64,000 nt of DNA, from contig JAYZQJ010000125.1 in the NCBI GenBank assembly GCA_036149055.1, positions 1 through 64,000 on the forward strand. Direction: 5' to 3'. Positions within the stretch are counted from its first letter, which is position 1; the number at the start of each line of letters is the position of its first letter. This document shows, piece by piece, positions 50,535 through 60,071 of the stretch. The stretch is from Myxococcota bacterium. GTDB taxonomy: Bacteria; Myxococcota_A; Polyangia; Polyangiales; Sandaracinaceae. The position numbers and the translations under genes are program-made. The notes below the pieces were generated by a model, which ran no database searches, was not told the DNA's origin, and was given only the letters and a program-made list of their open reading frames with translations.

Positions 50535-50647
50535 CCTCACCGGCAGAGGCGCGGCTCGGCCCCGCAAAGATGATGGTGGAGAGCGCACATGAACGGATAC
50601 TACACCCGCGCTTGGCAGCATCCGCCGCCGAGATTACGCTCGCGACC

Positions 50648-51562
50648 GTGCTCGAGCCCGCCACGCCTCGGACCGTCGGCACCGAGCTCGTCCGGAGAGA
50701 GAGCCGGTTGGACGCGTCGGTCAACTGGGTGCGCGAGGTCGACCGCGGGCTGATCGAGGCGCGCTACGTCCGCCGGAGCGATGACTACTTCGTCGTCTAT
50801 CTCTCCTCGCAGACCGGCTGCCGGCAGGCGTGCCGCATGTGTCACCTGACGGCCACGAAGCAGACGCGCATGCGCGACGTGACCCTCGAGGAGCTCCACG
50901 CGCAGGCCGACGTGGTGCTGCAGCACTACCGGCGAATTCGCGACGCCCGACCCGCTCGCGAGGTGCACTACAACTTCATGGCGCGGGGAGAGCCGCTGGT
51001 GAGTCCGGTCGTGTTGCACGACTCCGCGACCCTCTTCGACGGCCTCTGGCGACGGGCGCGCGAAGCCGCGGTCCGGCCGCGGTTCCTCGTCTCGACGATC
51101 CTGCCGCGCGCCCTCGGTGACCGCGCCCTCGAGGAGGTCTTCGACCGCTATCACCCGGAGCTCTATTACTCGCTCTACTCCACCGACGAGGACTTCCGGC
51201 GGCGCTGGCTGCCGAACGCGCTCCCGACCGGCGAAGCGCTCGACCGTCTGGCCGCCTGGCAGCGCGCCACCTACAAGATCATCAAGATCCACCACGCGCT
51301 GATCGACGGCGAGAACGACCGCGACGCCGACGTTCACGCCATCTGCGACGCGCTCGAGGCGCGCGGCCTCTATGTGCACGTGAACATCGTGCGCTACAAC
51401 CCCGCGTCGGAGCGGCTCGGCCGCGAGGCGCCGGAGCCCGTCATCGCCCGCCACGTCGACATCTTTCGGCGCCGACTTCCGAGTGCCCGCGTCAAAGTGA
51501 TCCCGCGCGTGGGCTTCGACGTCGCCGCGTCGTGCGGCATGTTCGTCGCGCCGGAGCGTTGA
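50648..51562 (+). CDS. Short RlmN/Cfr-like radical SAM protein
   Basis: YLSSQTGCRQACRMCHL (CxxxCxxC), NFMARGEP, GEND, NIVRYNP, VGFDVAASCGMF; start may be 50570. Confidence 0.85.
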   Translation: MLEPATPRTVGTELVRRESRLDASVNWVREVDRGLIEARYVRRSDDYFVVYLSSQTGCRQACRMCHLTATKQTRMRDVTLEELHAQADVVLQHYRRIRDARPAREVHYNFMARGEPLVSPVVLHDSATLFDGLWRRAREAAVRPRFLVSTILPRALGDRALEEVFDRYHPELYYSLYSTDEDFRRRWLPNALPTGEALDRLAAWQRATYKIIKIHHALIDGENDRDADVHAICDALEARGLYVHVNIVRYNPASERLGREAPEPVIARHVDIFRRRLPSARVKVIPRVGFDVAASCGMFVAPER

Positions 51563-51563
51563 A

Positions 51564-52349
51564 ATGCGGCGGTCGCCAGGGGCGGAACACGACGCGGCCG
51601 CGCGGCGACACCGCGCGCAAGAGGGCTTGTTGCTGCGGGTTGCACGTCGTGAGCCCGAGGCCTTCGCGCTCCGCGGCGGGATGCGCATGCGGCAGCTGAC
51701 CGTCGCGCGAGAGCGACCGGCTCTCGACGTCGATCTCGTGTGGCGCGGGGGCGCGGACTCGCGGGGGATCGCGGAGCTGCTGCGCGGCGCGCTGGCCGAC
51801 GACCAGGTGGGCGACGGGGTCGAGCTCGACCCGGCGCGGCTGCGTGTCGACGCCATGCAGGGGCCGCGCGGGCTGATGGGCTACCGCGCGATCACCCCCG
51901 CTCGCGTCGATGGTGTAGGCGTGGATCTGCGCGTCGATCTGCGCACCGATCTCCAGATCTGGCCGCCTCCCCGCGTCGAGCGGTTCCGCGCGACGACGGG
52001 GGAGGCGTGGCTGGCGCAGTGCGCGCCCGAGACGCTGCTGGGCCGCAAGGTGCAGGTCATCGTGGAGGCGGGGACCGATCGCTGGCGCGCGAAGGACCTG
52101 CTCGACGTGTCCCGGTTGCTCTCCGGGCAGCCCCTCGACGACGCGATCATCGAACGAGCCTGCGCCGACGCCTTCGCCACGGTGGGTTCGAGCCTGGAGG
52201 CGGCGCGTGACGTATGGGCGAGCCCCGACCTGCTGGGAGGTCGGCGAGCGCGGCTGCGGTGGCGGCGCGCGGGCGGCGCGCGAACGCTGGACGAAGTGGT
52301 CGCAGGGGTGCGACGAAGGTTGGCGCCGATCCTGGGAGGGGGCTCGTGA
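51564..52349 (+). CDS. AbiEii/AbiGii-like nucleotidyltransferase
   Basis: EGLLLRVA, FALRGG, LDVDL, PETLLGRK, RAKDLLDV, AFAT. Confidence 0.7.
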   Translation: MRRSPGAEHDAAARRHRAQEGLLLRVARREPEAFALRGGMRMRQLTVARERPALDVDLVWRGGADSRGIAELLRGALADDQVGDGVELDPARLRVDAMQGPRGLMGYRAITPARVDGVGVDLRVDLRTDLQIWPPPRVERFRATTGEAWLAQCAPETLLGRKVQVIVEAGTDRWRAKDLLDVSRLLSGQPLDDAIIERACADAFATVGSSLEAARDVWASPDLLGGRRARLRWRRAGGARTLDEVVAGVRRRLAPILGGGS

Positions 52350-57116: not shown

Positions 57117-58772
57117 TCACTCCTCCAGCAGGCGCTCCAGCAGGGCGGCGACGCGGATCTGCGATCGCTGCGGCGCCAGCACGGCTTCCACCGTGGAGCG
57201 GATGTCGCCTCCGCTCCGCCCGACCCGCGCGACGAAGAGCGAGATCTCGGAGTCCCGGCGGGAGGGGCTGCCGTGCCACGAGTGGTAGGGCCCGCTGAAG
57301 TAGGTGCGGTCCTTCTCCGGGATGTCGTGGCCGAGGTTCGAGATGAGGATCACGTCGCCGGCCAGGTGCCCCTGCGGGCCCACCGCGAGCTGCTCCAGGC
57401 GCCGGGCGACGTCGACCCAGTCGTCCCGCGGGTGGGATTCGAGCCAGGCGCTGACGTCGTGGGCGCGCTCTCCGTCGAACACCCGGAAAGGTCGCTGACG
57501 CTCGCCGGGGGCGGCCGGCTCCCGCACGAGCACCATCGCCAGGCTGCCCTGCAGCGACGGGAAGGGATCTCCGTCCTGCGAGGCGCGCCAGAACGCGCGA
57601 GCGGCGGCCAGGACGTCGTCTTCGTAGCGCGGCGGCGCCGACCAGTCGCAGCGCTCGCCCTCCGCCGCGCACCGGCTGCGGTCGGCGAGGTAGAGGTAGG
57701 CGAGCCCGCCCTGGTAGGCGAGCACGGCGTCGAAGTCGGCGTCCTCGGGGAGCGTCAGCTCGGGGGGGCGCGGGCGGAAGCCGGCGCGGCGCAGGACGGC
57801 GGGCGGGTCGTCCCGGGTGTCGTCGACGCTGAGCGCGTGCTGCTCGTCGTGCTGGACCGGGGTGTGCCCGTGGTCGCTGACGACGACGATCCACGTGTCC
57901 TCGAGCGCGTCGTCGGCGCGGTAGCGGTCGAACACCCGCCGGAGGCCGGGATCGATCACGTTCATCAGGTGCTCGTGCTGCTCGCCGAGCGGGTCCTCGC
58001 GGGAGTGCGCGACGAGGTCGACGCCCGGGAAGTACATCGTCTGCACGTCGGGCAGGCCGAAGGCCTCGATCGCCTCGAGGACCTCCTCCACCGAGCCCTC
58101 GTCGAGCTGGGCGTAGGCCTCCTCGCTCACGCTGTGCTCGCCTCGCAGGGACTCGGGCAGGATCGAGAACATCTGCACCGCGTCGAGCGCGTGCGGGGTC
58201 GTGTAGACGTCGGCGCCGCGGTGCACCGGGCCGAGGCTCGAGTGGCTGCGGAGGTCGAGCCGCTCGAAGATCGTCTCGACCTGGATCCGCTCGCCCATGA
58301 ACCCGTCGGTGTGCATCTGCATCGCGTGGTCCATGCCGCGCACCGAGACCGGGGCCGGGGCGAAGAACGCGGGCACGGTGCGGTCGAACCACTCGTTGCC
58401 GGGGACGCCGCTCTCGCCGGCGGGGGCCCCGGTGTAGATGGTCGTCCAGGCGGCCATGGTGGTGCTCGGCAGGATGCTGAGCACGCCGCGGGCCCGATAG
58501 CCGTGGGCGAAGAGGCCGGGCTCGTCCTGGCCTTCGCCCGCGATCGCCTCGAGGCTCCGGAGCTCACCTCCGTCGATCGCCGCGCCCAGCTCGTCGCCGC
58601 CGACGCCGTCGAGCCCGATCAGGATGAGGCGAGTGCCGCCGCGAGCCGCCCGCATCGGCCGGCGGAGCTGCTGCACGCCCGAGTGCTTGATGAGGGACAC
58701 CGCCTCGGACACGGAGACGCCGCTGCCGCAGGCGAGCGTGAGCGAGAGGGCCAGTGGGAGCATCCTGCGCAC
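57117..58772 (-). CDS. Alkaline phosphatase superfamily / nucleotide pyrophosphatase-phosphodiesterase lipoprotein
   Basis: LIGLDG, PSTT..AW.TI.TG, GVDLVAH, VSDHGH, WHGS; LAC lipobox. Confidence 0.88.
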   Translation of the reverse strand: MRRMLPLALSLTLACGSGVSVSEAVSLIKHSGVQQLRRPMRAARGGTRLILIGLDGVGGDELGAAIDGGELRSLEAIAGEGQDEPGLFAHGYRARGVLSILPSTTMAAWTTIYTGAPAGESGVPGNEWFDRTVPAFFAPAPVSVRGMDHAMQMHTDGFMGERIQVETIFERLDLRSHSSLGPVHRGADVYTTPHALDAVQMFSILPESLRGEHSVSEEAYAQLDEGSVEEVLEAIEAFGLPDVQTMYFPGVDLVAHSREDPLGEQHEHLMNVIDPGLRRVFDRYRADDALEDTWIVVVSDHGHTPVQHDEQHALSVDDTRDDPPAVLRRAGFRPRPPELTLPEDADFDAVLAYQGGLAYLYLADRSRCAAEGERCDWSAPPRYEDDVLAAARAFWRASQDGDPFPSLQGSLAMVLVREPAAPGERQRPFRVFDGERAHDVSAWLESHPRDDWVDVARRLEQLAVGPQGHLAGDVILISNLGHDIPEKDRTYFSGPYHSWHGSPSRRDSEISLFVARVGRSGGDIRSTVEAVLAPQRSQIRVAALLERLLEE

Positions 58773-58793
58773 GAGAGCGCAGTTAGGCCCCGA

Positions 58794-59405
58794 TCAACGA
58801 GGCTGCACCGTCAACCAGTTCGAGCCGGTCTCGCTGTCCCGATAGAGGTGCAGCCGGACGTTGGTCGGCCGCATCCGGTAGGTGAAGGTGTAGTCGATGA
58901 AGGCGTCGAGCTCGTCGCTCTCGACGCCCTTCTTGAAGCGTCCGTAGACGAGGCGGTTGTTGCAGCAGGGCGCGAGCTCCCCGAAGAAGTGCTTCCCCTC
59001 GGCGTCCTCGCGGGGGATGCCGCTGAACCGGGTCTCGGTGGCGTTGTAGAGGAGCACGTGGCCCTCGTCGCTGAGCTGGATGACGCCCACCGGGAGCACG
59101 TCGATCTTCGAGCGGGGCAGGTCCGGCAGGACGCGCGCGATCTCGTCGGCGTGGAGCCGGGCGTGACCGTTGATGTGGTCGCGCTCGTCTTCGAAGTCGC
59201 CGGGCGCGTCGATGCCCTCTTCGAGCAAGCTCTGGACGTCGCGGCGCCGGTACCGACGGTGGCCTCCCGCCGTCTTGCGCGCTGGCAATCGTCCCGCGTC
59301 GGCCCAACGCTTGATGCTCGTGGGGCTCACGCCGAGTCGTTCGGCGGCCTCACTGGTGGTGAGAAGCTCACCCTGCTCTTCGGTCGCGAGTTTGGAATCA
59401 GTCAT
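58794..59405 (-). CDS. Excisionase/MerR-type HTH fused to photoactive yellow protein (PYP) domain
   Basis: LLTTSEAAERLGVSPTSIKRWADAGRL...TAGGHRRY; GVIQL...G.VLLYNATE...SG, GKHFFGELAPC, YGRFKKGV, DYTFTYRMRPT.V..H; AGAGGA SD. Confidence 0.9.
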   Translation of the reverse strand: MTDSKLATEEQGELLTTSEAAERLGVSPTSIKRWADAGRLPARKTAGGHRRYRRRDVQSLLEEGIDAPGDFEDERDHINGHARLHADEIARVLPDLPRSKIDVLPVGVIQLSDEGHVLLYNATETRFSGIPREDAEGKHFFGELAPCCNNRLVYGRFKKGVESDELDAFIDYTFTYRMRPTNVRLHLYRDSETGSNWLTVQPR

Positions 59406-59628
59406 GGCGTCCTCTGATGAAATCGAGAAGCTCCTTCCGAAAGCGGAGGGGGACCTGGAGTCGCAGCTCGTCAGCCTCTACGCGGACCGGGCCAAGCTCT
59501 ACCGGGAGCTCGGGACGGCCGATCCCGACGACATCATCGCGATGGTGCGGCGGCTCGAGGCCCAGCTCGTCTCGCTCTACGAGGAGCGGGAGCGGGCCTT
59601 CGCCGGGCGCGACATCGAGGGGGACTGA
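59404..59628 (+). CDS. Small protein with internal LE(S/A)QLVSLY repeat
   Basis: GC3-rich; LESQLVSLYADR and LEAQLVSLYEER. Confidence 0.75.
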   Translation: MASSDEIEKLLPKAEGDLESQLVSLYADRAKLYRELGTADPDDIIAMVRRLEAQLVSLYEERERAFAGRDIEGD

Positions 59629-59837
59629 GCGCTTCACGTCGAGAACGCTTGGGCCAGTCCCCAGGGCTGGCCAACCCGACGCGAACAATCGCCCCGCCCC
59701 CCGGTGTGGCCATCCGGCGGGTGGCGCAAGATGCCTCGGAGCCCCGGTTTTCTTGACCGCGAGGCGTTCCGTCCGGCACTCCCCGAGGAGCCAGTGGCCT
59801 CGCGTCGGGCGAATGACGCGGGCCCAGGGAGGTCGAC

Positions 59838-60071
59838 ATGATGAAGGAAGAGCTTCTCGAGCGGGTGAGCGAGCTGGTCCGGCAGGTGACGGAGGCGCGC
59901 TTCGAAGGCGCCCTCTACGCCAAGCTGGCCCGAGCCCACGGCTACGCCGACGGGTACATGCGGGCGCTGATCGACGCGGGCCTCGTGGACCGGGACGAGC
60001 TGCTCCGCGCCGTCTCGGACGCGCGCAAGGACGCGCTCGACGCCGACGACGCCCGCCGCCACGCGGCCTGA
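59838..60071 (+). CDS. Small hypothetical protein
   Basis: GGAGG SD; GC3-rich; RAHGYADGYMRALIDAG. Confidence 0.8.
   Translation: MMKEELLERVSELVRQVTEARFEGALYAKLARAHGYADGYMRALIDAGLVDRDELLRAVSDARKDALDADDARRHAA

Follow-up and report, generated by a model that had tools for sequence, protein, structure and literature searches.

Described relatives of an HTH-PYP protein

The way in which PYP photoreceptors relay their signal is stated as a gap in the portions cited here of two surveys (Xing 2022, PMC9664959; Dohmen 2025, PMC12826048). The PYP family, represented by the H. halophila protein, the profile TIGR02373 and clade B of Xing 2022, shares with the protein studied here, HTH-PYP, its fold, a gapless alignment and Tyr42, Glu46 and Cys69; HTH-PYP differs in that the domain is fused behind a DNA-binding HTH and has no linked tal or pcl gene. 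An N-terminal MerR-like HTH followed by a C-terminal light sensor is also the arrangement of CarH and of CtMerR, a B12 photoreceptor that passes from tetramer to monomer in light, and the carotenoid and photolyase targets of that type are those predicted for HTH-PYP. In place of B12 domains, however, HTH-PYP has PYP, together with a separate small candidate partner gene, and it would respond to blue rather than green light. The HTH resembles that of Streptomyces BldC, which binds DNA head-to-tail on direct repeats (Schumacher 2018, PMC5859096), in its winged form, in the equivalents of Arg30, Trp31, Gly44, His46, Arg47 and Arg48, and in a predicted 9-bp operator near-identical to that of BldC. 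BldC is a stand-alone protein of 68 aa without a sensor, whereas HTH-PYP lacks the Arg22-Glu16 bridge and falls below the cut-off of the BldC model (NF033787). For the idea of a partner, PBP of Rhodobacter capsulatus is a precedent: its gene adjoins pyp, and its binding to PYP depends on light. PBP has 142 aa with predicted helices and sheets, whereas the candidate HTH-PYP partner is an all-helical repeat of 50-85 aa, a distinction drawn from descriptions. EL222-type LOV-HTH factors likewise fuse a PAS-fold blue-light sensor to an HTH; they differ from HTH-PYP in their flavin chromophore, LuxR-type HTH, opposite domain order and action as activators.

The HTH-PYP architecture is absent from the domain lists in the main texts of both surveys, as far as the portions consulted go. 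In the main text of Xing 2022 (PMC9664959), within that scope, 'HTH', 'MerR' and 'DNA-binding' have 0 occurrences, and HTH-type terms matched in its supplement (first two places per term) refer to neighbor genes; the paper also notes that neighbors of Leptospira and Salinibacter PYPs are often unannotated. The corresponding portions of text and Table 2 in Dohmen 2025 (PMC12826048) contain no HTH fusion, while one row of supplement 1 was parsed as HTH_17+PAS (MBX2811747.1) and supplement 3 holds a second 'helix-turn-helix' protein, so the architecture appears there to have been collected but not described. A term search of part of a 2026 PYP preprint gave no matches, and further sources were parts of Kim 2021 (bioRxiv) and PMC11796333. 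We found no paper on a natural HTH-PYP; subscription papers (e.g., Meyer 2012) or bioRxiv supplements may mention the fusion or the repeat described below. The modules of HTH-PYP are known, but their combination is undescribed; a candidate operator and a candidate partner family that has no name go with it.

The HTH-PYP gene and its surroundings

The window (the whole stretch of DNA that was analyzed, 64,000 nucleotides) carries the following features.

58794..59405, minus strand: HTH-PYP fusion gene, 203 aa (ORF call, profile and phmmer matches; 55 relatives aligned)
59217..59366, minus strand: BldC-type winged HTH, aa 14-63 (profile matches, conserved BldC residues)
58803..59165, minus strand: PYP domain, aa 81-201 (TIGR02373, phmmer, fold match; Tyr120, Glu124 and Cys147 are PYP Tyr42, Glu46 and Cys69)
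59404..59628, plus strand: 74-aa helix-hairpin protein with two LExQLxxLY units, candidate PYP partner (ORF list, repeat profiles, codon pattern)

The fusion ORF has exactly the extent that the original prediction gave it; it lies on the minus strand and encodes 203 aa. The genome (9.9 Mb, 73% GC, 96% complete) holds one PYP copy, and the nearest named relatives of the protein are from Sandaracinaceae. Relative to same-genus orthologs, nucleotide changes over codon positions 1, 2 and 3 number 20, 24 and 66 in the HTH-PYP gene and 6, 7 and 20 in its 74-aa neighbor; because they fall mostly on third positions, both behave as real genes. Contigs from two RNA runs of one sample span 58673-59760, and pieces occur in two metatranscriptomes, material from which strand, level and transcription itself are not deducible. 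The predicted structure (pLDDT 89) has two confident domains joined by a disordered linker (pLDDT <50 at residues 68-79). Elsewhere in the window, a radical SAM gene and, behind it, an AbiEii-type nucleotidyltransferase gene occupy 50570-52349 (plus strand), and a 77-aa orphan without family match lies at 59838-60071 (plus strand); in loci L001 and L186 the orphan is retained beside the repeat gene.

The PYP domain

Profile and fold searches place the domain in the PYP family and not among generic PAS domains. TIGR02373 matches residues 86-201 (E 5.8e-29) as against only E 1e-6 for generic PAS, and in a Foldseek search with the predicted structure the top matches are all PYP (E 1e-12, TM about 0.9 by target), the first non-PYP PAS structure appearing only at E 3e-6. 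The TIGR02373 score of 100.7 bits misses the equivalog cut-off of 143 bits; this profile catches only about 20% of known PYPs, and the residue that defines the family is Cys69, the thioester site, according to the part of Xing 2022 (PMC9664959) cited here. The gapless alignment that had been made by eye to PYP residues ~23-109 is reproduced by phmmer over a wider range (residues 81-200 against 3-122 of a solved PYP, E 2e-22). At an offset of +78, Tyr42, Glu46, Cys69, Phe96, Tyr98 and Met100 are all in place, as are the predicted substitutions Thr50>Ser, Arg52>Ile and Thr70>Cys.

Across 56 aligned rows (the query and 55 relatives), the Cys69 equivalent, Cys147 in the window protein, is invariant (56/56), Glu46 is present in 56/56 and Tyr42 in 55/56. 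At position 70, Thr is the majority residue (43/56) and Cys occurs in 9/56. Eight of the nine pocket residues listed in the portion of Dohmen 2025 (PMC12826048) consulted are identical, the exception being Val66>Leu. The sequence shows a predicted pocket that can hold p-coumarate on Cys147. PYPs with Ser50 absorb at 432-434 nm in two cases in the same part of that survey, which suggests, by analogy, an absorption peak near 432-434 nm for the window PYP.

The HTH domain

The N-terminal excisionase- or MerR-like HTH of the original prediction is matched by HTH_17 over residues 14-63 (E 7e-16, above cut-off). Among NCBIfam HTH models the best is BldC (NF033787; E 6e-16, 57.9 bits, below its cut-off of 77), and the closest solved HTH relatives are BldC (E 6e-11) and then CtMerR (PDB 8JBS). 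The equivalents of BldC Arg30, Trp31, Val23, Thr42, Gly44, His46, Arg47 and Arg48, residues that in BldC read DNA or make the head-to-tail contact (Schumacher 2018, PMC5859096, part cited), are invariant in 56/56 rows. BldC Arg22 is replaced by Gly in 51/56 rows, which removes the Arg22-Glu16 inter-subunit bridge; with the bridge gone, the C-terminal domain probably has to assist cooperative binding.

The nearest HTH in the same genome belongs to a CarH-like paralog, with which 28 of 47 residues are identical (60%) and the recognition helix is common to both. A domain profile search found no B12-binding domain in the window HTH-PYP protein. The paralog has the following setting.

L090:1436-2302 (G000:C71): HTH_17+B12 CarH-like regulator gene, divergent from crtC/crtD-like genes; locus L090:1436-5082

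Family and distribution

Among 536 candidates, 91 matches included 56 that span both domains, one of them the window's own protein, and the 55 relatives are 40-81% identical to the query. The family is compact: of the 50%-identity representatives, the top 150 include two full-length proteins and one fragment with both domains, and HTH-PYP occurs in 19 of 79 GTDB loci listed, mostly in Myxococcota-labeled MAGs. The nearest stand-alone relatives include PYPs of Leptospira, Salinibacter and Longimonas. In a quick tree, HTH-PYP domains group with stand-alone PYPs of these genera, of Planctomycetota, Gemmatimonadota and further groups, and are separated from 24 other PYPs (SH-aLRT 87), 23 of which are from the host's own order; 32 of 36 HTH-PYP rows share one branch (SH-aLRT 90). 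In the portion of Xing 2022 (PMC9664959) cited, Leptospira and Salinibacter PYPs form part of clade B and Gemmatimonas is in clade A, so the label 'clade-B-like' is approximate. Degenerate PYP copies in this group lose the Cys; HTH-PYP rows never do.

Some loci and proteins have more than one PYP domain. At L016:7327-8758, L096:5336-6775 and L098:1196-2635, two divergent HTH-PYP paralogs stand in tandem and are followed by one repeat gene; DUF523/DUF1722 precedes them, with TIGR01777 also in L016 and L096. Such paralogs could possibly form a heteromer. One MCP-like protein of 1174 aa (P0108) carries four tandem Cys-intact PYP domains.

A small repeat gene accompanies the PYP branch

The 74-aa gene is divergent from the HTH-PYP gene, and the two start codons overlap by 2 bases. 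It is single-copy in the genome, and its product has no match in Pfam, NCBIfam or the ESM Atlas and nothing usable in a PDB fold search. In 18 of 19 GTDB loci a relative of this gene lies beside the fusion, and the one locus without it is at a contig end. The gene stands to HTH-PYP in four kinds of orientation (divergent, convergent and both tandem ones); its products in HTH-PYP loci are all-helical and of 50-85 aa. A count over 171 distinct PYP domains, in which kin are not independent, used repeat profiles built from 15 of the counted neighbors plus repeat units of those loci. A repeat gene no more than 1.5 kb away accompanies 35/37 HTH-PYP domains (the other 2 are cut by contig ends), 97/107 stand-alone relatives (7 cut by contig ends, 3 without), 3/3 degenerate PYP copies and 0/24 other PYPs (2 cut by contig ends).

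Two proteins (P0144, P0169) join the repeat to a Cys-intact PYP, and three loci (L045, L171, L172) encode long repeat proteins fused to Cys-less PYP-like domains, beside intact PYPs; these fusions make the repeat a likely PYP partner. The gene content of the loci points the same way. Stand-alone PYP loci contain a second unannotated helical domain in 82/105 cases, lyase genes in 42/105 and ligase genes in 50/105, whereas a profile search found each of the three in 0/32 HTH-PYP loci (the profiles had training sets of 9, 7 and 5 sequences from stand-alone loci). Because the repeat is kept when all else but PYP is lost, PYP itself is its likely partner and the HTH would replace the other output. 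The 74-aa protein is thus likely, from these patterns of occurrence, to partner the PYP domain. A complex prediction for the two scored 0.01 and counts neither for nor against.

That the 74-aa protein acts on the HTH as an anti-repressor was rejected, since the repeat accompanies 97/107 PYP relatives that have no HTH. The identity of the PYP domain, an HTH with the DNA-reading residues of BldC, and relatives located in photoprotection clusters that have a matching operator uphold part of the original prediction; its description as 'one-component' had missed the small gene and is probably too simple, because this partner travels with the fusion almost without exception.

The second helical domain, with a YIELKSxW-like motif (L027:7272-7691, L038:7328-7741, L055:9907-11346, P0158), occurs by itself or in fusions with CheW-like domains, with the repeat or with PYP; of five long versions scanned, four are fused to CheW-like domains, and P0158 is the fusion to PYP. 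It is a candidate PYP signal relay. It was not found in the window's genome, and an ESM Atlas search with it returned nothing usable.

Chromophore supply

The reported absence of tal and pcl from the window agrees with our search, which found none among annotated ORFs (about 48-64 kb) or through genome-wide family searches. Elsewhere in the genome there is a candidate lyase and ligase pair, both below cut-off. One of the genome's two aromatic lyases is a clear HutH; the second scores highest with the model of BagA, a tyrosine ammonia-lyase (455 bits), and it lies three genes from the best match to the coumarate-ligase model TIGR02372 (125 bits), in this cluster.

L091:3654-15548 (G000:C22): polyketide cluster with ketosynthases, ACP, acyltransferase, halogenase-like oxidoreductase, coumarate-ligase-like and TAL-like genes

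The cluster presumably resembles aryl-polyene clusters. Judged by sequence, its lyase and ligase could supply p-coumaroyl-CoA, though they are not PYP-dedicated.

A lyase or ligase gene was found in 0/32 HTH-PYP loci, and in 0/20 of those of at least 8 kb, whereas stand-alone loci of at least 8 kb have a lyase in 35/60 and a ligase in 42/60. The ligase typical of stand-alone relatives occurs in 0/9 carrier genomes (best ≤101 bits; control 309), a TIGR02372-like ligase in only 3/11 and always below cut-off, and the only lyase in 5/5 other carriers is of HutH type; these carrier genomes are MAGs, and for most of them no completeness is stated. The missing genes could be due to gaps in assembly, to general ligases or to scavenging. 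Chromophore supply is uncertain and the weak point of the photoreceptor reading.

Candidate operator and target genes

A tandem 9-bp direct repeat of the form GGTCGATTT was learned from 14 CarH-like upstream regions of other genomes, with a score of 194 as against 99-114 on four shuffled sets, and is near-identical to the published BldC 9-bp repeat. In a held-out test, the interval between the carH-like and crt genes of this genome ranks 14-15 of 8043 gene starts, and the top intergenic matches also include sites that precede genes for a fasciclin protein and for an RpoH-like sigma factor. The CarH-like family in this order is thereby predicted to have a conserved, BldC-like tandem operator. 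A 158-aa unannotated gene (L227:8379-8855) and the RpoH-like sigma factor gene (L226:6040-6346) each lie behind several copies of the 9-bp motif, and small genes similar by eye to the former flank CarH-like genes in L209, L211 and L218. Repeated palindromic intergenic elements of the CGTCGAATTCGACG type (G000:C70:23550-23660, C196:300-360) also score with the matrix; they are probably a separate repeat family.

The matrix, learned on the B12 paralog family, was then applied to HTH-PYP loci, which taken together show enrichment of sites. Sites of at least 12 bits occur in 18/179 intergenic stretches, in 12/26 HTH-PYP loci (shuffles 1-5), and 14/26 loci have none; the comparison set of GC-rich stand-alone PYP loci has such sites in 4/454 stretches and 4/56 loci (shuffles 2-7). 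Carotenoid or photolyase linkage is seen in three loci. L018 has a site (14 bits) before a crtI-synthase-crtI operon and L019, with the same operon type, only 7 bits, while L017 has sites before a TIGR01777-photolyase operon, hemH and DUF2177. In L016 and L096, sites stand before TIGR01777-DUF523/1722 operons, which continue into the tandem HTH-PYP genes. Photoprotection-type neighbors occur in 4/19 GTDB loci (68 of 115 neighbors, and further ones, were annotated), and there are none next to the window HTH-PYP gene.

The HTH-PYP gene of the window lacks an operator, ranking only 1418 among 8043 gene starts, and autoregulation in this genome was rejected, with no site and no sigma-70 consensus promoter near the gene. 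Among the upstream regions of HTH-PYP genes themselves, 7/29 non-redundant ones pass the shuffle test (13 near-duplicates dropped), and a plus-strand site stands at one position (about -64) in 7/28, while the minus strand gives no more than 1. These regions are not enriched overall relative to other genes of the same loci (Mann-Whitney p 0.47), and de novo learning on them alone gave a different, weak motif (240 as against 200-223 on shuffles).

A B12 protein with this HTH was not found in 8/10 carrier genomes checked, whose completeness is not given; the enrichment of sites extends to genomes of this kind, and in them HTH-PYP is the strongest candidate for binding. In genomes that do have the B12 paralog, this one among them, it could alone account for the sites.

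Proposed mechanism and alternatives

From these sequence patterns, we consider it somewhat probable that HTH-PYP is a B12-independent, light-gated, partner-aided repressor of photoprotection genes that binds cooperatively in the dark and is released by blue light. The HTHs would bind tandem 9-bp repeats head-to-tail over a promoter, in the fashion of BldC, and so repress it; the partner, with its two units, would link a pair of PYP domains in one of the photostates; and blue light would isomerize the chromophore, loosen the assembly and release the genes. The release would parallel that of B12-dependent CarH and CtMerR, but without B12, and we infer a dark-bound direction of the switch by analogy. 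In this genome, targets would be common with the CarH-like paralog, namely the crt operon, the fasciclin gene and the RpoH-like sigma factor gene. More tentatively, the LExQLxxLY repeat may be a light-state-specific PYP binder that assembles BldC-type HTHs on tandem repeats, and the repeat and the second helical domain may be the missing relay of a large multi-phylum PYP branch.

The protein might instead sense chromophore availability, which we think unlikely. Here, p-coumarate or a related hydroxycinnamate would not be made by the cell but scavenged (from prey, algae or plant matter) and activated by a general acyl-CoA ligase, and loading of Cys147, with or without light, would switch DNA binding. 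That the pocket is invariant, yet most carriers have no linked or recognizable synthesis genes, speaks for such a sensor, and Dohmen 2025 (PMC12826048), in the part cited, likewise raises environmental uptake for pyp operons without TAL. The predicted targets, however, are photolyase, carotenoid and ferrochelatase genes rather than those of aromatic catabolism, and this genome does have a TAL-like lyase and a coumarate-ligase-like gene in one cluster, both below cut-off.

The partner-aided repressor has a simpler counterpart in a true one-component photoreceptor, in which unfolding of PYP would directly affect the HTH or the contacts between PYP domains, while the small protein would be no more than an aid to folding, chromophore loading or turnover. 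PYP is partly unfolded in its signaling state during the photocycle, and the linker from the HTH to the PYP N-terminal cap is short (8-32 residues in 54/56 rows), as direct coupling would have it; but the linker is also variable, and disordered in the model. Retention of the partner in loci that have lost lyase and ligase speaks against a part in loading, and we regard this reading as quite improbable.

A different chromophore or thiol chemistry appears very improbable. The HutH-type lyase that stands alone in the other carriers could speculatively provide another acrylate thioester, such as one derived from urocanate in a UV sensor, and the Cys found at position 70 in some rows would permit sensing by Cys147-Cys148 oxidation, redox neofunctionalization being proposed for other PYPs in the part of Xing 2022 (PMC9664959) cited. 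Yet the phenolate-holding Tyr42 and Glu46 are kept almost throughout, Thr is the majority residue at position 70, and a literature search for an imidazole-acrylate PYP found none. That HTH-PYP is a decayed or light-independent regulator with PYP as a mere dimerization module is hardly credible: the missed TIGR02373 cut-off and the unlinked chromophore genes would suit it, but that profile misses most PYPs, and the Cys that degenerate copies of this group lose is invariant here at 40-81% identity to the query.

Significance

In HTH-PYP, the output that is missing from accounts of PYP signaling is built into the protein; it comes with a candidate operator and regulon, and the unannotated partner family accompanies the whole PYP branch. 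The system is compact enough for in vitro work: it consists of two proteins, one of 203 aa and one of 74 aa, and a site of 18 bp. If the partner-aided repressor is correct, it would constitute a compact light-switchable repressor, and carotenoid and photolyase control in myxobacteria would have become free of B12 by a swap of sensors behind one HTH. As read from these genomes, HTH-PYP probably switches on sun-protection genes, such as those for carotenoids and DNA repair, in predatory myxobacteria.
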